From positions 1,111 through 65,110 of the forward strand of contig JBAQCH010000385.1 of the NCBI GenBank assembly GCA_049294015.1: a stretch of DNA of 64,000 nt, read 5' to 3'. Each line of letters starts with the position of its first letter. The first letter of the stretch is position 1. Below, one piece after another: positions 3,550 to 58,377 of this stretch. The notes below the pieces were generated by a model. The model made no database searches. It was not told the origin of the DNA and saw nothing but the letters and a program-made list of their open reading frames with translations. This stretch comes from Anaerolineae bacterium. GTDB lineage: Bacteria > Chloroflexota > Anaerolineae > JAAEKA01. The translations under genes were made by a program, and so were the position numbers.

Positions 3550-3969
3550 ATGGATACGATTGTGCTGGAACCAAACCTGCGCGCCTGGCTGGAACAGGAT
3601 GCAGAACAAGACACTCGCAGCATCAACAATCTGATTAACGAAGCGGTCGCCCAGTATCTGCGCGAGCGACAGCAAGCCAAGCTCGACCGGGAGATCGTCG
3701 CATACGAAGCGATGCACTCCCAGTTGGCGCTCGATCACGCAGGTGAGTGGGTGGCTATCCATCAGCAGGAGCTAGTCGATCACGACCGTGATCGCGTAGC
3801 CCTCTACCGACGTATTCGTAGTCGCTTTGGACGGACGTCGGTGCTGATCCGTCAAGTCATGGACAATCCGATGGAGGAGGTGTGGTTGCGTACGCCTTCC
3901 ACCGGGAGAAACGTGCTGAATAGGTTGGTCATGGTCCTGGACGGCCCCAAACAGACCTTGCAGATATGA
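3550..3969 (+). CDS. small RHH(CopG-like)/DUF5678-like protein, translationally coupled to cydD
   Basis: 139 aa; N-terminal ribbon-helix-helix-like segment (RSINNLINEAVAQYLRER); stop overlaps cydD start (ATGA). Confidence 0.55.
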   Translation: MDTIVLEPNLRAWLEQDAEQDTRSINNLINEAVAQYLRERQQAKLDREIVAYEAMHSQLALDHAGEWVAIHQQELVDHDRDRVALYRRIRSRFGRTSVLIRQVMDNPMEEVWLRTPSTGRNVLNRLVMVLDGPKQTLQI

Positions 3970-5861
3970 CCGCTCTACCACGAATCGCAGGGAGGCGCGG
4001 CGCTGACGACTCGACGCATCAGCGAAAGCCGGGCTTGACCAGCCGGCTGCTTTCGGCCAGCCCAACGGCCCGCTGGCTGCTGTTCCTGGCCGTGACCGCC
4101 GGCTTCACAGCCGGCGCTTTGTTAGTAGCGCAGATCGTCCTGCTCAGCAGCGCGGTTCAGCGCGTCTTTATCCTCGATCAAACGCTGGGCGACGTGCTGC
4201 CGCTGCTGGGGGTGATGCTGGCGCTGCTGCTGCTGCGCGCGGGCCTGGTCTGGGCGCAGGAGGTGGCGGCCCAGGGCGCAGCCAGCCGCGTCAAGCAGGG
4301 GCTGCGCGGCCAACTGCTGGCGCGCATCTACGCGCTGGGGCCGGCCTATACCCGCAGCGAGCGCAGCGGCGAGCTGGTCAACACGGCTGTCGAGGGGGTG
4401 GAGGCCCTGGACCCCTACGTCACCCAGTTCCTGCCCGCCCGTGCGCTGGCCGTTCTGCTGCCGCTGCTGGTGCTGCTGGCCGTCTTCCTGCTGGACCGCT
4501 GGACGACGCTGGTGCTGCTCTTCGCCGGGCCGATGCTGCTCCTGCTGCTGGCCGTGATCGGCGGCCGGGCTAAGGCGCTGACCGAGCGCCGTTTCCTGGA
4601 GTTGAGCTGGCTGAGCGCCTTCTTCCTGGACGTGCTGCAAGGCATTGCTACGCTCAAGATGTTCGGACGCAGCCGCGAACAAGCCGCTACCATCGAACGC
4701 ATCAGCCAGCACTACGGCAAGACCACCATGGAGGTGCTGGCAACCGCTTTCCAGACCTCGCTGATGATGGAGTGGGCGGCCACCGCAGCCACAGCCATGG
4801 TGGCGCTGGAGGTTAGTCTGCGCCTGATCAACGGCGCGATCTCCTTCGACCGGGCGCTGGCCGTGCTGCTGCTGACGCCGGAGTTCTTCCTGCCTTTGCG
4901 CCAGATGGCGGTCAAATACCACGTCGGCACGGCCGGCCAGGCCGCGGCGCAGCGGGTGGCTGCGGTGTTGGATGAGGGGAGGGGAACTGGGGCAACTGGA
5001 GAAACCGGAGGAACTCGCGACGCTCAGACCGGTCTCCTGACCGAGCCCGCCGCGCGGTCATCCGCTGGGGCCGGTCTCCTGACCGAGCCCGCCGCGCGTT
5101 TTGACATAGGCTTCGACGACGTCTGGTTTGCCTATCCGCCGCGGGCGCAGGACAGCGGCCAGCTTGGAGAAAAGTCGGCCACTGTCCTGCGCGGTCTCAC
5201 CTTTGTCATTCCGCATGGCCAGACCACAGCGTTGGTGGGGGCAACCGGCGCAGGCAAGTCGACAGTCGCGAATCTGCTGTTGCGCTTCATCGACCCCGAC
5301 GCAGGCCGCATCACCGTGGGCGGCGTCAGCTTGGACAGCATCGGCCGCGCGGCGTGGCGGCGGCGGATAGCTATCGTGCCGCAGGCGCCGCACATCTTCC
5401 ACGGCACGGCGCTGGACAACATCCGCCTGGCCCGGCCCGAGGCCAGCATGGAGCAGGTGATCGCCGCGGCCCAGGCCGCCCACGCCCACGGCTTCATCCA
5501 GGCCCTGCCGCAGGGCTACGACACCCCGCTGGGCGAGGGCGGCGCACGGCTTAGCGGCGGCCAGCGCCAGCGCCTGGCCCTGGCGCGCGCCTTCCTCAAG
5601 GACGCCCCGCTGCTGCTACTGGATGAAGCCACCGCCAACCTGGACGCCGAGAGCGACGCCTTGATCCGCGCAGCGCTGGCTCGCCTCGCCGCCGGTCGCA
5701 CCGTCCTGCTCATCGCCCATCGTCTGGAGCTGGCCGCAGCCGCCGATCAAATCGTCGTCCTGGACGCCGGCCGCGCCGCCGAGGTCGGCAACCACGCCAC
5801 GCTCCTGGCCCAAAACGGCCTCTACACCCAACTGGTCAACAGCTACATGAACGATGAATGA
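3966..5861 (+). CDS. cydD: thiol reductant ABC exporter, CydD subunit (TMD-NBD)
   Basis: 6-TM ABC exporter domain plus NBD (Walker A GATGAGKST, LSGGQRQR signature, Walker B LLLLDEAT); directly downstream of cydAB. Confidence 0.85.
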   Translation: MTALPRIAGRRGADDSTHQRKPGLTSRLLSASPTARWLLFLAVTAGFTAGALLVAQIVLLSSAVQRVFILDQTLGDVLPLLGVMLALLLLRAGLVWAQEVAAQGAASRVKQGLRGQLLARIYALGPAYTRSERSGELVNTAVEGVEALDPYVTQFLPARALAVLLPLLVLLAVFLLDRWTTLVLLFAGPMLLLLLAVIGGRAKALTERRFLELSWLSAFFLDVLQGIATLKMFGRSREQAATIERISQHYGKTTMEVLATAFQTSLMMEWAATAATAMVALEVSLRLINGAISFDRALAVLLLTPEFFLPLRQMAVKYHVGTAGQAAAQRVAAVLDEGRGTGATGETGGTRDAQTGLLTEPAARSSAGAGLLTEPAARFDIGFDDVWFAYPPRAQDSGQLGEKSATVLRGLTFVIPHGQTTALVGATGAGKSTVANLLLRFIDPDAGRITVGGVSLDSIGRAAWRRRIAIVPQAPHIFHGTALDNIRLARPEASMEQVIAAAQAAHAHGFIQALPQGYDTPLGEGGARLSGGQRQRLALARAFLKDAPLLLLDEATANLDAESDALIRAALARLAAGRTVLLIAHRLELAAAADQIVVLDAGRAAEVGNHATLLAQNGLYTQLVNSYMNDE

Positions 5862-5932
5862 GGAACGATGAACGATGAACCGAAGAGTCATCGTCCCTCA
5901 TTCATCATTCATCATTCATCAATCATCATTCC

Positions 5933-7813
5933 ATGATACGCCTCCTCAAGCTCATCGCTCCCTTCCGCTGGTGGATCGTCGCCGGCGTGCTGTTGAGCTT
6001 CGCCGTCACCGGGGCCAGCGTCGGGCTGATGGCCGTGTCGGCCTACCTGATCTCCAAGGCGGCGTTGGCGCGCGACATGACCGACCTGGCCGTCTGGATC
6101 ACCGGCGTGCGCTTCTTCGCCGTCTCCCGGGCCGCGCTGCGTTACGCTGAGCGCTACGTCACCCACCTGGCCACCTTCCGCATCCTGACCTCGCTGCGCG
6201 TCTGGTTTTATAGCGCTGTCGAGCCGCTGGCGCCGGCCCGGCTGGCGTCATACCGCAGCGGCGACCTGTTGACCCGCATCGTAGCCGACATCGAGACGCT
6301 GGAGAACTTCTACCTGCGGGTGGTGATCCCGCCCTTGGCCGCCGCGCTGGTCACGCTGCTGGCCTGTCTGCTGCTGGGCAGCTTCGACGTCTGGCTGGGC
6401 ATCGCCTTGCTAAGTTTCTTGCTGCTCACCGGCGTCGCCCTGCCGCTGGCCAGCCGCTGGCTCAGCCGCCAGCCGGCGGCCGAGGCCATCGCCCTGCGCG
6501 CCGAGCTGAACGCCACGCTGGTGGACGACATTCAGGGCATCGCCGATCTGCTGGCCTGTGGCCAGGAAGAGGTGTACCAGGCCCGCACGCTGCGACTCAG
6601 CCAGCAACTCCACCAGGCTCAGCAGCGGCTGGCCCAGGTGCGCGGCCTGGGCAACGGTCTGGCCGCGCTCTGCGCCAGCCTGGCCGCGCTGACCGTGCTG
6701 TTCCTGGCCATCCCGCTGGTGACCGCCGGCCAGATCGACGGCGTCTTCCTGGCCCTGCTGCCGCTGGCCGCCATCGCCGCGTTCGAGGCCGTCCAGCCGC
6801 TGGCCCACGCCTGGCAGACGCTGGAATCCAGCCAGGCGGCCGCCCGACGTATCTTCGAGCTGGTCGACGCGCCAGGACTGTCAGGTCGGCGAATCGACGG
6901 CGGGACGAGCATGGGCGCGACGGGGCAGCCCCACACGTCAGCCGCCGACCTGACAGTCCTTGATGTAGTCGACGGCGGGACGAGCATGGGCGCGACGGTG
7001 CAGCCCCCCACGTCAGCCGCCGACCTGACAGTCCTTGATGTAGTCGACGCGCCAGGACTGTCAGGTCGGCGAGTCGACGGCGGGATGAGCATGGGCGCGA
7101 CGGGGCAGCCCCACACGTCAGCCGCCGACCTGACAGTCCTTGACAGCGGCGGCCTCTCTATCGAAATACGGGACCTGCGCTTCCGCTATGCTGCCGACGA
7201 GCCGCTGGTGTTGGACGGCGTCAGCTTCAGCGTGCCAGCCGGCGGCCGCGCGGCCATCGTCGGCCCCAACGGCTCCGGCAAGTCCTCGCTGGTCAACCTG
7301 TTGCTGCGCTTCTGGGACTACGAGGGGGGAACGATCCGCGTCGGGGGACGTGACTTGCGGGAGATGTCCGCCGACGAGGCGCGCGGCCTGCTGGCCGTCG
7401 TGCCGCAGCACACCCATCTGTTCAACGCCACGATTCGCGACAACCTCCACCTGGCCAACCCCGATGCCAGCGACGACGAGCTGATCGCCGCCTGCCAGCA
7501 AGCCCAGCTTCACGACTTCATCCAGAGCCTGCCGCAGGGCTACGACACGCTGGTGGGGGAGAACGGGCTGCTGCTCAGCGGCGGCGAGCGGCAGCGGCTG
7601 GCCATCGCCCGCGCCGTCCTGAAGGACGCGCCGATCCTGATCCTGGACGAGGCCACGTCGCAACTGGATGCCCTGACCGAGCAGCGCCTCTTGCAGTCGC
7701 TGGCCGCTTTCATGGGCCGCCGCACCACGCTCCTGATCTCGCACCGCCGGGCCGGGCTGGCGCAGTTCGAGCGCATCGAGCTGGAGGCCAGCAGCGCCGG
7801 GAATTACACCTAA
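5933..7813 (+). CDS. cydC: thiol reductant ABC exporter, CydC subunit (TMD-NBD) with repeat insertion in linker
   Basis: ABC exporter TMD plus NBD (GPNGSGKSS, LSGGERQR, ILILDEAT); contains three tandem ~105-bp palindromic in-frame repeats at 6864-7143. Confidence 0.85.
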   Translation: MIRLLKLIAPFRWWIVAGVLLSFAVTGASVGLMAVSAYLISKAALARDMTDLAVWITGVRFFAVSRAALRYAERYVTHLATFRILTSLRVWFYSAVEPLAPARLASYRSGDLLTRIVADIETLENFYLRVVIPPLAAALVTLLACLLLGSFDVWLGIALLSFLLLTGVALPLASRWLSRQPAAEAIALRAELNATLVDDIQGIADLLACGQEEVYQARTLRLSQQLHQAQQRLAQVRGLGNGLAALCASLAALTVLFLAIPLVTAGQIDGVFLALLPLAAIAAFEAVQPLAHAWQTLESSQAAARRIFELVDAPGLSGRRIDGGTSMGATGQPHTSAADLTVLDVVDGGTSMGATVQPPTSAADLTVLDVVDAPGLSGRRVDGGMSMGATGQPHTSAADLTVLDSGGLSIEIRDLRFRYAADEPLVLDGVSFSVPAGGRAAIVGPNGSGKSSLVNLLLRFWDYEGGTIRVGGRDLREMSADEARGLLAVVPQHTHLFNATIRDNLHLANPDASDDELIAACQQAQLHDFIQSLPQGYDTLVGENGLLLSGGERQRLAIARAVLKDAPILILDEATSQLDALTEQRLLQSLAAFMGRRTTLLISHRRAGLAQFERIELEASSAGNYT

Positions 7814-7908: not shown

Positions 7909-10620
7909 ATGACACAATCCATCCATGCAGTTGCGCGCTTCCTTCTTCGTTTTGTTCTCGTCTGGCTGGTTGACGCCGTCTCCTTGCTCATTGCCGCCGG
8001 CATCCTGCCGGGGATGGAGTTTGTAACCATCGGCCCAACCCCAGCGTGGGTGGTGGCGGTGTCCGCCGCCTTCGTGATGGGCCTGGTGAACCTGCTGATC
8101 CGGCCATTGATCCTCATGTTGGCCCGGCCGCTGGGTTTCTTTGTCATGTTCGGCGTGGGCTTCCTGGTCAATGCGCTCGTCTTGCTGATCACTGCCAACC
8201 TGCTCGCGCCCGCCTTTTTGATCGGCGGCCTGCTGCAGGCCATCGTCGCCAGCATCGTCCTGGCCATCATCAACGCTGTGCTCACCGGTATCATCGAGCT
8301 AGATGACGAGGGCTCCTTTTTCCAGAACCGCATCGAACGCCAGGCCAGACGTCACATGTTCGCCGGCGCGACGGAGACGGGTCGCGGGTTGGTGATGATG
8401 GAGATCGACGGCCTTAGCTATCATCACCTCCACAAGGCGCTGGCCGATGGGTTGATGCCGACTCTGCAGCAGATGATCGACGAGCAAGGCTACGTCCTCT
8501 CCAAGGTCGATTGCGGCATCCCCTCGCAGACTTCGGCCTGCCAGGCCGGCATCCTGTTTGGCGACAACGACGACATCCCCGCCTTCCGCTGGTACGACAA
8601 GAGCGAGCAGCGCCTGATCGTCTCCACCAAGGATGCGACCTATCTGAATGCCCGCTACGCCAACGGCAATGGCCTGCTGCGCGGCGGCTCCAGCATCGGC
8701 AATATGCTCAACGGCGACGCCGAAAAGTCGCTGCTGACCGTGGCCGACATCAAGACCGACGACAAGGAGCAGCAAAAGCGGCGCGCGGAGGACATCCGCC
8801 TGCTGATGCTCCATCCCTATTTCTTCATGCGCACCATCGCCCTTTTCTTCGGCGTCGTGCTGCGCGAGCTGTGGGAGGGCTGGCAGCAGCGGCGCAAGGA
8901 TGTCTATCCCCGCCTCAACCGGCTGCACGGCGGCTATCCCTTCATCCGCGCGGCCACCTCCACGCTGGTGCGCGACCTGACGGCCAATCTGACGTTGCTG
9001 GACATCGTGCGCGGCTCGCCGTCGATCTACATCACCTGGCCCGGCTATGACGAGGTGGCGCACCACTCCGGGCCCTGGACCAGCGACGCCTTCGGCGAGC
9101 TGAAACGCTATGACCGGGTTATTGCCCGCGTGCAGCGGACCATCCAGGAGAAGGCGCCGCGGCCCTATGACCTGGTCCTGCTCTCCGACCACGGCCAGTC
9201 CTTCGGGCCGACCTTCAAGATGCGCTACGGCGTCACGCTGAAGGAGTTCATCGAGCAGCACCTGCCGCAGGGTGTGACCGTGGCGCAGTCGATGGGCGGC
9301 GACACCGGCATGACCTCGCTGACCGGCGTGTCGGGCGAGCTGGCCAACGTTCAGCAGCAGGAGGGCGGCGCCGCTGGCCGGGCCGTGGCGAAGCAAGGGC
9401 AGAAGCTGATCGAACAAGGGGCCAAGGCAGGGGAGCCGGAAGAGCTTGCCCAGGCTGCGCAGGTGACGGCCTACGGCAGCGGCAACCTGGCTCAGGTCTA
9501 CTTCGATCTCCAGCCGCGCAAGATCACCCTGAGCGAGCTGAACGAGGCCTACCCCGGCATGGTCGACGCGCTGGTGCAGCACGAGGGCATCGGTCTGGTC
9601 TGCGGCTATCTGGACGACGGGACGCCCGTGGCGCTGAGCAAGGCTGGCCAGCGCAACCTACACAGCGGTGAGGTGACGCGCGCGGACCCGCTGCTGCCCT
9701 ATGCGCCGGCCGATCCCGCAGCCTACGGCCACGCGGCCATCGAGAAACGAATCTGGCAGGTGCGCCGGGTGATGGACTTCCCCCACGCCGGCGACCTGAT
9801 GGTGATCAGCACGGTCTACCCCGACGGCACCGTGGCCGCGCTGGAGGAGCTGATCGGCAACCACGGCGGCATCGGCGGCGAGCAGACCGACGCCTTCCTC
9901 TTCCATCCAGCCGACGTTCTGGTGCCCGACACCCGTAACTCCACCGACGTGTTCCAAATTCTTAACGCCGTGCGCGGCACGCCCGTGCCCCCCAACGCTG
10001 CGGGCGCGCAGGCTGGCCAGGCCGCTGCGATCAGCGCCTGGTCGTCGTCCAACCTGGCCAGGGGCATCGGCAGCGTTGGCGTCTGGGTCGGGTGCGCCTT
10101 GCGAGCGTTGATCCTGGAGCGCAGCGCCTATCGTGAGGTGGCGCAAGACGCTTTGATGACCGGCCCGGCATTGCTGATTGCTGTGCTGGCGGCGCTGGTC
10201 GAGATGCTAGTGGTGACCGGCGGCTTCGACGGCCCGTTTCTCGCCATCCGCCTCGGCCTGTGGCTGCTGGCGGTCTTGTTCATCTTCGCTGCCGGGCGGC
10301 TGTTGAGCGGCAAGGGCGCGTTCACCAGGACGTTCCGAGCCGTGGGCTTTGCCCAAGTTGCCTGGTTCCTGGGACTGTTGGCGCTCATTCCCCCCATCGC
10401 GCCGCTGGCCCGGCTGATCACCGTGCTGTATGCTTTCTTCGCCGTCTGGCTGGGCGCTGCGGAGGCGCATGAGACCAAGGGCTGGCGCACCGTTGTGTTT
10501 CCGGTCGTCGCGTTGCTGCTCTTGATCGTCGTTGGCTTCGCGTTGCGTTCATTGCTAGCCGGCGCCGAGTTTGCTTTGTCGGCGCTGTTCAACGACTTCG
10601 GCCTGGCCCCCCAGCCGTAA
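7909..10620 (+). CDS. fusion protein: DUF360/phage-holin-4-like N-terminal membrane domain + type I phosphodiesterase/nucleotide pyrophosphatase (AlkP superfamily) + C-terminal Yip1-like membrane domain
   Basis: 903 aa; N-term 4-TM PF04020-like segment; middle domain with AlkP-core-like motifs (MEIDGLSYHHL, CGIPSQTSACQAGILFG); C-term multi-TM Yip1-like segment. Confidence 0.7.
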   Translation: MTQSIHAVARFLLRFVLVWLVDAVSLLIAAGILPGMEFVTIGPTPAWVVAVSAAFVMGLVNLLIRPLILMLARPLGFFVMFGVGFLVNALVLLITANLLAPAFLIGGLLQAIVASIVLAIINAVLTGIIELDDEGSFFQNRIERQARRHMFAGATETGRGLVMMEIDGLSYHHLHKALADGLMPTLQQMIDEQGYVLSKVDCGIPSQTSACQAGILFGDNDDIPAFRWYDKSEQRLIVSTKDATYLNARYANGNGLLRGGSSIGNMLNGDAEKSLLTVADIKTDDKEQQKRRAEDIRLLMLHPYFFMRTIALFFGVVLRELWEGWQQRRKDVYPRLNRLHGGYPFIRAATSTLVRDLTANLTLLDIVRGSPSIYITWPGYDEVAHHSGPWTSDAFGELKRYDRVIARVQRTIQEKAPRPYDLVLLSDHGQSFGPTFKMRYGVTLKEFIEQHLPQGVTVAQSMGGDTGMTSLTGVSGELANVQQQEGGAAGRAVAKQGQKLIEQGAKAGEPEELAQAAQVTAYGSGNLAQVYFDLQPRKITLSELNEAYPGMVDALVQHEGIGLVCGYLDDGTPVALSKAGQRNLHSGEVTRADPLLPYAPADPAAYGHAAIEKRIWQVRRVMDFPHAGDLMVISTVYPDGTVAALEELIGNHGGIGGEQTDAFLFHPADVLVPDTRNSTDVFQILNAVRGTPVPPNAAGAQAGQAAAISAWSSSNLARGIGSVGVWVGCALRALILERSAYREVAQDALMTGPALLIAVLAALVEMLVVTGGFDGPFLAIRLGLWLLAVLFIFAAGRLLSGKGAFTRTFRAVGFAQVAWFLGLLALIPPIAPLARLITVLYAFFAVWLGAAEAHETKGWRTVVFPVVALLLLIVVGFALRSLLAGAEFALSALFNDFGLAPQP

Positions 10621-20480: not shown

Positions 20481-20555
20481 GGTAGATTGGTAGATTGGTA
20501 AACCGGTAGATTGGTCAGCTTTTTCGCGAGACTCAACCAATCTACCAATCTACCA
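20481..20555 (+). repeat. long hairpin built from GGTAGATTGGT repeats downstream of argF
   Basis: ggtagattggtagattggt ... accaatctaccaatctacc, with a third direct copy in the loop. Confidence 0.6.
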
Positions 20556-37486: not shown

Positions 37487-37579
37487 CGGGAGCTCCTTTC
37501 GGGAATTGGGTTGGCAATCGAGGAATGCCGGATACACGCCAGCGCGCTGCTCGCGGTTCACCCCGTGCAGTCACTCCAT

Positions 37580-37619
37580 CACCCTGTCACCTTGCCACCT
37601 TGTCACCCTGTCACCCTGA
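37580..37619 (-). promoter_or_regulatory. five tandem octamer repeats (CAGGGTGA/CAAGGTGR on - strand) upstream of 36434 gene
   Basis: tcaccctg tcaccttg ccaccttg tcaccctg tcaccctg, 95-135 nt upstream of the start codon. Confidence 0.45.
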
Positions 37620-41772: not shown

Positions 41773-41774
41773 GA

Positions 41775-41902
41775 GTGTCAGGTGTCAAGTGTCATAAGTG
41801 TCAGGTGTAGGGTGTCATGTGTCAAGTACCAAGTGTCAGGTGTCATGTGGCATGTTGAGCGTGCTGCGGGGCACCTGACACCCGACACCCGACACCTGAC
41901 AC
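41775..41902. repeat. GTGTCAR heptamer tandem-repeat tract with downstream inverted copy
   Basis: about 10 tandem gtgtca(g/a) units at 41775-41848; complementary cacctgacacccgacacccgacacctgacacc at 41871-41902. Confidence 0.6.
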
Positions 41903-41923
41903 CTTCCCACAAGGAGATTCCCC

Positions 41924-56971: not shown

Positions 56972-58377
<1,406 letters not shown>

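Follow-up and report, generated by a model that had tools for sequence, protein, structure and literature searches.

A probable REPIN-type element in the CydC linker of an uncultured Anaerolineae bacterium and its in-frame tandem duplication

Introduction

Repetitive extragenic palindromic (REP) sequences that occur as doublets and form hairpins are known as REPINs, and have been described together with the RAYT transposases (Bertels and Rainey, 2011, PMC3116915; Nunvar et al., 2010). In the GI REPINs the invariant ends are 71 bp apart, the spacer between them is less well conserved, and changes compensate one another (Bertels and Rainey, 2011, PMC3116915). The REPs tagged with GTAG or CGTC consist of an 8-9-bp stem with a 4-5-nucleotide (nt) loop and an unpaired tag at one end; REP dimers and clusters are also found within genes of several phyla, where they encode 20-82 amino acids (aa) and, in orthologous recB genes, sit at about the same site, and the classic example of in-frame insertion is provided by the Rickettsia palindromic elements, RPE (Di Nocera et al., 2013, PMC3733652). 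Here we describe a block of palindromic repeats within a 64,000-nt stretch of contig JBAQCH010000385.1 from an Anaerolineae bacterium (this whole stretch is called the window), where it lies in-frame in cydC, the gene for an ABC exporter half-transporter. We consider it probable (roughly 70%) that the block derives from one REPIN-type element, old in a permissive coding linker, which recently underwent in-frame tandem duplication and partial deletion.

The element resembles REPINs in its invariant inverted ends of ~16-18 nt, its less conserved spacer, the distance of about 70 nt between end starts and the compensatory hairpin changes between subfamilies, and its relatives are extragenic, some of them beside a RAYT-like gene. 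It differs from REPINs in that the cydC copy is intragenic and translated, that its host belongs to the Chloroflexota and not to the Proteobacteria, that its spacer measures 51 nt against 35-36 nt in the relatives, and that the RAYT-adjacent hairpins were seen on only one side of the gene. Like the intragenic REPs and RPE, it is an in-frame palindrome in a gene of known function, and lengthens the protein by a short peptide at a surface position where this is tolerated. Unlike them, it belongs to another sequence family, its block reaches about 93 aa by way of local tandem duplication, and the cydC copy is traceable across orthologs with 10-21% nucleotide divergence, its arms being more conserved than the rest of the gene. 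The resemblance to RPE is functional only, as an in-frame palindromic insert, and the host phylum differs. RPE are reportedly inserted in-frame in protein genes of Rickettsia, an observation said to go back to Ogata and colleagues in 2000. Two arrays of relatives of the element, at the metagenomic loci L129 and L139, recall the E. coli BIME (a REP cluster) in their alternating REP orientation, their two kinds of linker and their ~100-nt period, whereas the cydC array is coding and made of whole doublets arranged head to tail together with host flank. A further likeness is to the TIR/TIRYT systems (Di Nocera et al., 2013), which pair a Y1 transposase gene with inverted repeats that lack GTAG, as dimers or clusters; TIRs on both sides of the gene, by which these systems are defined, were not seen on our short contigs.

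Results

Three tandem hairpin units lie in-frame in the CydC linker

The initial annotation of the window had described three tandem palindromic units of ~105 bp, the second lacking 30 nt, inserted in-frame between the transmembrane domain (TMD) and the nucleotide-binding domain (NBD) of CydC. We found the block to be placed correctly to within one base (6863-7143) and its three tandem units to measure 105, 75 and about 101 nt (Table 1). The open reading frame (ORF) at 5933-7813 is that of CydC, its translation is as quoted, and the position of the block in-frame in the TMD-NBD linker was confirmed. An inverted repeat is present as claimed, but it is a perfect repeat of 18 nt and not of 17 bp; the two arm starts of a unit lie 68 nt apart. 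Tandem Repeats Finder reported a 75-nt period with 97% matches, and the start-to-start spacings between repeats are 75 and 105 nt. Among themselves the units share 94-97% identity, and they are close in size to a sequencing read. In unit B, the missing 30 nt span the distance from one TCGACG direct repeat to the next, and unit C is the counterpart of the single copy that is present in orthologs. The originally reported 17-mer occurs five times in the block and, when up to three mismatches are allowed, once more in the 64-kb window (position 57175, 3 mismatches); shuffled sequences are expected to give 0.43 matches, and none of 100 shuffles gave 6.

Table 1. Window coordinates of the repeat units, their host gene and the adjoining features.
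Feature	Coordinates	Strand	Characteristics
cydC, ABC exporter half-transporter, repeat host	5933..7813	+	626 aa; NCBIfam TIGR02868, 477.7 bits (cutoff 329)
Unit A	6863..6967	+	105 nt; comprises the duplicated host flank GTCGACGCGCC, a complete hairpin element and the TGATGTA junction
Unit A left arm	6874..6891	+	AGGACTGTCAGGTCGGCG, translation GLSGRR; inverted repeat 100% complementary, 51 nt between arms
Unit A spacer (loop)	6892..6942	+	51 nt; TCGACG beside left arm, ACGTCAGC beside right arm
Unit A right arm	6943..6960	+	CGCCGACCTGACAGTCCT, translation ADLTVL
Unit B	6968..7042	+	75 nt, minus 30 nt including left arm; lone right arm at 7018-7035
Unit C	7043..about 7143	+	Full copy, arms at 7054-7071 and 7123-7140; runs on into host GACAGCGGCGGCCTC
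cydD, upstream partner	3966..5861	+	TIGR02857, 517 bits
cydD-cydC spacer hairpin, second repeat type of the genome	5847..5931	.	Inverted heptamer arrays (ATGAACG)n and (TCATTCA)n; outside the element

The proposed capacity to form hairpins was supported by folding against shuffled controls. The whole block folded as RNA reached -155.5 kcal/mol (z = -6.0), and a single unit folded as DNA reached -30.9 kcal/mol (z = -3.7). A single arm by itself has an internal stem of 5 bp at most (GACCT/AGGTC). The reverse strand, which had been described as open across the block, is open in two of its three frames.

The sequence of the host protein is 100% identical to P0001, an NCBI protein from a metagenome-assembled genome (MAG) labelled 'Anaerolineae bacterium', and the gene order read from the orthologous locus L001 is cydA-cydB-cydD-cydC. 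The TIGR02868 match falls in two stretches that are parted by the insert, which follows TM6 and precedes the first NBD strand. Measured from the RIFEL to the xFxY motif, the window linker is 104 aa long, compared with 26-32 aa, the ancestral length, in repeat-free orthologs, the more distant of which have a plain linker. The initial figure of about 93 added aa is right for what the block encodes, yet the window CydC is only 60 aa longer than that of a strain with a single copy (566 aa). In the AlphaFold2 model, residues 314-405 have a pLDDT of 25-29 and are without secondary structure; the last TMD helix (272-312) precedes them and the first NBD strand (410-417) follows.

Hairpins with the same arms occur at other loci, two of them beside RAYT-like genes

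A metagenome scan that required both arms returned the cydC contig and seven other distinct loci, the latter with the same 14-20-nt arms and with spacers of 35-36 nt. Five of the seven are isolated extragenic hairpins with unrelated flanks. The other two are arrays with a period of 100-103 nt, comprising two hairpins in L129 and three in L139, and they stand directly 5' of a 197-aa ORF and of P0123, a homolog with 82% identity to it and a called length of 188 aa, on contigs other than those of the window genome. The ORF matches Pfam Y1_Tnp (PF01797) with 28.7 bits (cutoff 23), and its sole significant match in the PDB is E. coli TnpA_REP (4ER8, E = 1.1e-6). The alignment to 4ER8 places HFH on HMH and YIHRNP on YIYINP. 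By these matches the ORF has the Y1/HUH fold with the HUH motif and the catalytic tyrosine, and is nearer to TnpA_REP than to the TnpA of IS200/IS605. Some of the closest homologs are named 'REP element-mobilizing transposase RayT' by JGI, and four homologs with 63-65% identity come from Thermoflexales, Anaerolineales, Chloroflexales or Viridilinea MAGs. We regard the ORF as a predicted Y1/HUH transposase of RAYT-like type, and the contigs that carry it are probably from Chloroflexota.

The outer stem differs between the groups of hairpins in a paired fashion. It reads AGGAC/GTCCT in cydC and AGACC/GGTCT beside the RAYT-like genes, and the dispersed copies have AAACC/GGTTT and AAAGC/GCTTT. Across the alignment 95% of cells pair and three pairs change on both sides, and the score is higher than in 500 of 500 shuffles and in all slid controls. 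With its arms, its fold, the variability of arm versus spacer and this stem covariation, the cydC element has the hairpin architecture of a REPIN. The cydC copies in addition have CGTC 4 nt inside each arm (left, TCGACG; right, ACGTCAGC), which is absent from the RAYT-adjacent copies.

Several other searches returned nothing specific. An Rfam search of the window region and 10 related loci gave only sub-threshold matches to generic miRNA hairpins, and no hairpin with these arms was found in viral contigs. The 35-aa unit had no match among 1.84 billion representative proteins; peptide searches are uninformative here, as a 53-aa composite missed even P0001. Four other identities for the block were rejected: an integron attC site, for which the spacing and core sites are unsuitable; a CRISPR-like array, since the arms are inverted and not direct; an intrinsic terminator, for which a T-run is absent; and an intein or domain insert, as the segment has 35 aa and is predicted to be disordered.

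Diverged CydC orthologs carry the element at the same site

CydC homologs were aligned as protein and their DNA was compared at the ortholog loci; all sequences compared were MAG or metagenome contigs. Six further ortholog contigs (L004-L009, representing five or six lineages) carry exactly one copy each, with site, frame and orientation as in the window. Their cydC genes are 79-90% identical to that of the window in nucleotides, with a third-position identity of 0.63-0.80. Spacer identity (0.62-0.83) roughly tracks gene identity (0.79-0.90), as fits a single old insertion that was inherited vertically. Judged by these orthologs, the insertion would predate the divergence of the element-bearing lineages. 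The initial annotation had envisaged an element that colonised the linker, and had set against it an ancient linker shared by relatives with diverged sequence. An in-frame REP-type element is indeed what we found, but not a recent arrival, since diverged orthologs share the segment at the same site; the spacers of L004-L009 are such a shared and diverged segment. 'Inserted element' and 'ancient linker' both hold and are not alternatives here.

The additional copies arose from local duplication

Copy number varies among strains that are 96-98% identical, with three copies in the window, two in P0002 and one in P0003. The two-copy form was recovered with identical sequence from two independent data sets, ENA and JGI. 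In the two-copy strain (L001) the junction GACGAGCTGGCTGACGCGCC repeats, in diverged form, the host flank GAGCTGGTCGACGCGCC. This result indicates that a 108-nt piece of host and element was duplicated locally in tandem, with no new insertion. The window junction TGATGTAGTCGAC is 3 nt shorter than that of the two-copy strain and identical at both joins, which would make the third copy the latest event. The idea that the unit had been amplified in tandem is thus supported by close strains that hold one, two or three copies, whereas an amplification through repeated insertion is not borne out, because host flank and element were duplicated together. On the evidence of the junctions, the amplification appears to be recent and to have proceeded by local tandem duplication and not by re-transposition. 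All indels are multiples of three (21, 30, 105 and 108 nt), which is consistent with selection for an intact CydC.

The arms are conserved as nucleotides

We compared variability in the arms with that in the spacer and in the remaining gene. Of 34 arm sites 5 are variable, as against 26 of 48 spacer sites (p = 2e-4), 585 of the 1533 sites in the remainder of the gene (p = 0.003) and 7 of the 9 sites in the three codons that come next. The same holds for third codon positions alone, of which 2 of 11 are variable in the arms and 333 of 511 elsewhere (p = 0.002). No more than 1.6% of the 12-codon windows of the gene match the conservation of the arms, which lie in the least conserved protein region of CydC. 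The arm codons GGA, TCA, GGT, CGA and ACA each account for 1-6% of their own synonymous family in these genes. The invariance of such rare codons points to conservation at the level of the nucleotides and not of the peptide.

A separate observation concerns the arms of L006 (ortholog P0009), which combine a left arm of cydC type (AGGAC...) with a right arm of the RAYT-adjacent type (...GGTCT) and have two stem mismatches. They may represent an intermediate in a compensatory switch between the arm variants.

Other repeats have entered the same linker

Element-free orthologs within the element-bearing clade have TNLPIYQSTNLP-like sequence in the linker. In one of them, L143 (4001-5701, CydC ortholog P0011), in-frame tandem octamers, (TACCAATC)n, code for the linker sequence. 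The octamer recurs between genes of the window, where it makes up an inverted array at 20481-20555 and has the 16-mer ACCAATCTACCAATCT in common with L143 (window 20484-20551). The presence of one octamer in both places suggests that a microsatellite-like genome repeat, too, entered the coding linker. Another CydC homolog has (VIPST)n at the same place, so that in different lineages the linker seems to collect several kinds of genome repeat: REPIN, octamer and (VIPST)n.

Linker expansions were also seen in the CydC homologs P0054, P0092, P0097, P0118, P0120, P0031 and P0036, and differ from one another. They comprise (VIPST)n in a 101-aa linker, RSPHALVR..GTP.CPR inserts and unrelated inserts of 57-76 aa. 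From these comparisons the TMD-NBD linker appears to be a general indel hotspot in Chloroflexota CydC.

Short-repeat arrays and a neighbouring gene

Apart from the element, the window has arrays of short repeats at 5847-5931, 20481-20555, 41774-41904 and 37579-37618. Intergenic hairpins are formed from paired inverted arrays of tandem repeats with units of 7-8 nt, namely (ATGAACG)n/(TCATTCA)n, (GGTAGATT)n/(ACCAATCT)n and (AGTGTCA)n/(CACCTGA)n, and there is a single unpaired array, (TCACCCTG)x5. Heptamer-array hairpins with other units occur in the related metagenome contigs L131, L134, L138, L130 and L139, and together they look like a lineage-wide repeat class. In the cydD-cydC region (window 5835-5945) the stop codon of cydD falls within the first heptamer array. 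Orthologs vary in how many heptamer units the 71-nt spacer has and in the sequence of these units, with extra TCATTCA units in L004 and CCATTAA/CCATTCA in L143 and L009. This variation could affect the translational coupling of cydD and cydC.

On the 3' side of cydC lies a gene for a 903-aa protein (window 7909-10620, + strand), whose position is conserved in four ortholog contigs (L001, L002, L003 and L005). The ortholog products combine Pfam Phage_holin_4_2, Phosphodiest and Yip1, and for the window protein NCBIfam gives only a weak PhnA-like match. From its domains, the gene is predicted to encode an unusual membrane-anchored fusion of phosphodiesterase type adjoining the cyd operon.

Discussion

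The history that we propose begins with a REPIN-type element, that is, two inverted REP-like copies of ~18-20 nt with a less conserved spacer, able to form a long hairpin in single-stranded DNA or RNA. One copy would have entered the disordered linker of CydC in-frame, in the ancestor of a group of Anaerolineae lineages, and would since have been translated as an unstructured peptide of 29-35 aa; we infer that its original arrival was by RAYT-type transposition. Under vertical inheritance the spacer and adjacent codons then diverged about as silent sites do, with the arms remaining near-invariant. In the lineage of the window, a 108-nt segment composed of about 15 nt of host flank and the element was duplicated in tandem, the period was shortened to 105 nt, a second duplication followed, and the middle copy lost its left arm through the 30-nt deletion from TCGACG to TCGACG. 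Slipped-strand mispairing or unequal recombination presumably produced the copies, and the hairpin may have favoured this. The element would be a tolerated passenger in a permissive loop that leaves CydC intact, and its peptide is probably functionally neutral.

A number of observations weigh against this history. The description of the block as REP/MITE-like is supported by its REPIN architecture and by arms shared with extragenic and RAYT-adjacent hairpins, but neither the 64-kb window nor about 60 kb of ortholog contigs holds a second copy of the element, and neither the window (best tblastn E = 0.31) nor the ortholog contigs hold a RAYT gene. A scan of the genome collection with the 17-nt arm alone gave at least 119 stretches, and the matches examined were single-arm chance matches. 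The AGGAC/GTCCT arm variant was seen in cydC only, and so was the 51-nt spacer; the 35-36-nt spacers of the other members are largely unrelated in sequence, with only CGTCAGCC beside the right arm shared with L130. The element lacks a GTAG tag. The best NCBIfam model for the RAYT-like ORF, REP_Tyr_transpos (NF047646), scores 58.1 bits and stays below its curated cutoff of 80, and the hairpins of L129 and L139 lie on the 5' side of the gene only, on short contigs. No clean empty site was found, as the element-free orthologs carry other filler (the octamer repeat), and the insertion as an event is for this reason inferred. The element-bearing orthologs are not monophyletic in a neighbour-joining tree calculated with the linker masked and without support values; they are interspersed with octamer-bearing ones, so that presence is patchy, a pattern for which several losses, recurrent gains and recombination are each a possible cause. 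The arm mutations in L006, L008 and L009 are uncompensated, and the copy numbers come from short-read metagenome assemblies.

The last of these points raises the question of whether the three-copy array, or the whole series of one, two and three copies, is an artefact of short-read assembly, in which units of 75-105 nt or co-existing strains were collapsed or mis-joined. Every sequence compared comes from MAG or metagenome contigs, and the units are nearly identical at a size close to that of a read. However, the two-copy form was assembled independently in the ENA and JGI data with identical sequence, the copies carry private substitutions, the junctions are in-frame and internally consistent, and the single copy in the diverged orthologs does not depend on the assembly question at all, so we consider such an artefact improbable. 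The patchy tree in turn invites an explanation by recurrent independent insertions, drawn from a conserved mobile pool into one permissive and target-specific site. The near-identical arms with their differing spacers would fit this explanation, as would the mixing of element-type and octamer-type orthologs, and Y1 transposases (IS200/IS605) are target-specific. If the copies had been drawn repeatedly from such a pool, however, they would have to agree in a spacer length of 51 nt and a recognisable sequence of the spacer that were seen at no other locus, as well as an arm variant, AGGAC/GTCCT, that is private to the cydC copies (except for the right arm of L006). Because this spacer and this arm variant are private to cydC, recurrent insertion is disfavoured; in addition, spacer divergence follows gene divergence, and site, frame and orientation are always identical. 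The tree itself lacks support values, and recombination could mimic its pattern.

A lineage-specific linker peptide that evolved in situ, with a palindrome and a resemblance to RAYT-adjacent hairpins that are coincidental, would account for a segment found only in cydC across the window and ortholog contigs and for the conserved protein motifs PGLSGRR and ADLTVL. We regard this as highly implausible: two exact 14-nt inverted arms placed 35-65 nt apart cannot recur by chance at seven other loci, these loci are no fragments of cydC, the codons, including rare ones, are conserved beyond the residues, and the region is predicted to be disordered. What happened to the arms after insertion is a different matter. 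A former REPIN hairpin, or a cluster of rare codons, might have been kept by host selection at the TMD-NBD boundary of the cydC message, either as a translational pause that parts membrane insertion from NBD folding or as a stability or processing hairpin in the cydABDC transcript. The rank of the arms among the most conserved nucleotide stretches of the gene, their invariant rare codons, the strong predicted RNA fold and the retention of the element in the window lineage and in L004-L009 all speak for such exaptation. Yet about half of the close orthologs are without the element and have the unrelated octamer repeat instead, and the distant ones have a plain linker of 26-30 aa, so that the element is dispensable; single arm mutations have stayed without compensation, and unit B has lost an arm. 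That the arms are kept by host selection as a nucleic-acid signal, even though silent sites are 20-37% diverged across the lineages, is thus a tentative proposal that we think rather unlikely to be correct.

We return to the REPIN-type element, duplicated in place, as our preferred reading. Intragenic events of this kind are already known, and the present case is well documented and unsurprising. It extends REP/RAYT-type elements, and their in-frame insertion within genes, to uncultured Anaerolineae (Chloroflexota), and to the known cases it adds the context of a new host phylum, an insert with a history that is traceable in orthologs, and figures for the conservation of arm versus spacer. The age of the insert, its decay (fast in the spacer, slow in the arms) and its later tandem amplification can be read directly. 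The CydC linker would act as a sink for repeats, which in different lineages are a REPIN, a microsatellite of octamers or a 15-nt repeat. Such inserts are to be expected when ABC transporters are annotated or their structures modelled; the linker repeats may also serve as a strain marker. The sole part of wider interest is the unexplained conservation of the arms at the nucleotide level. If host selection were its cause, this locus would provide a documented case in which a REP-type element was exapted inside a coding sequence, with a copy number that varies between strains.

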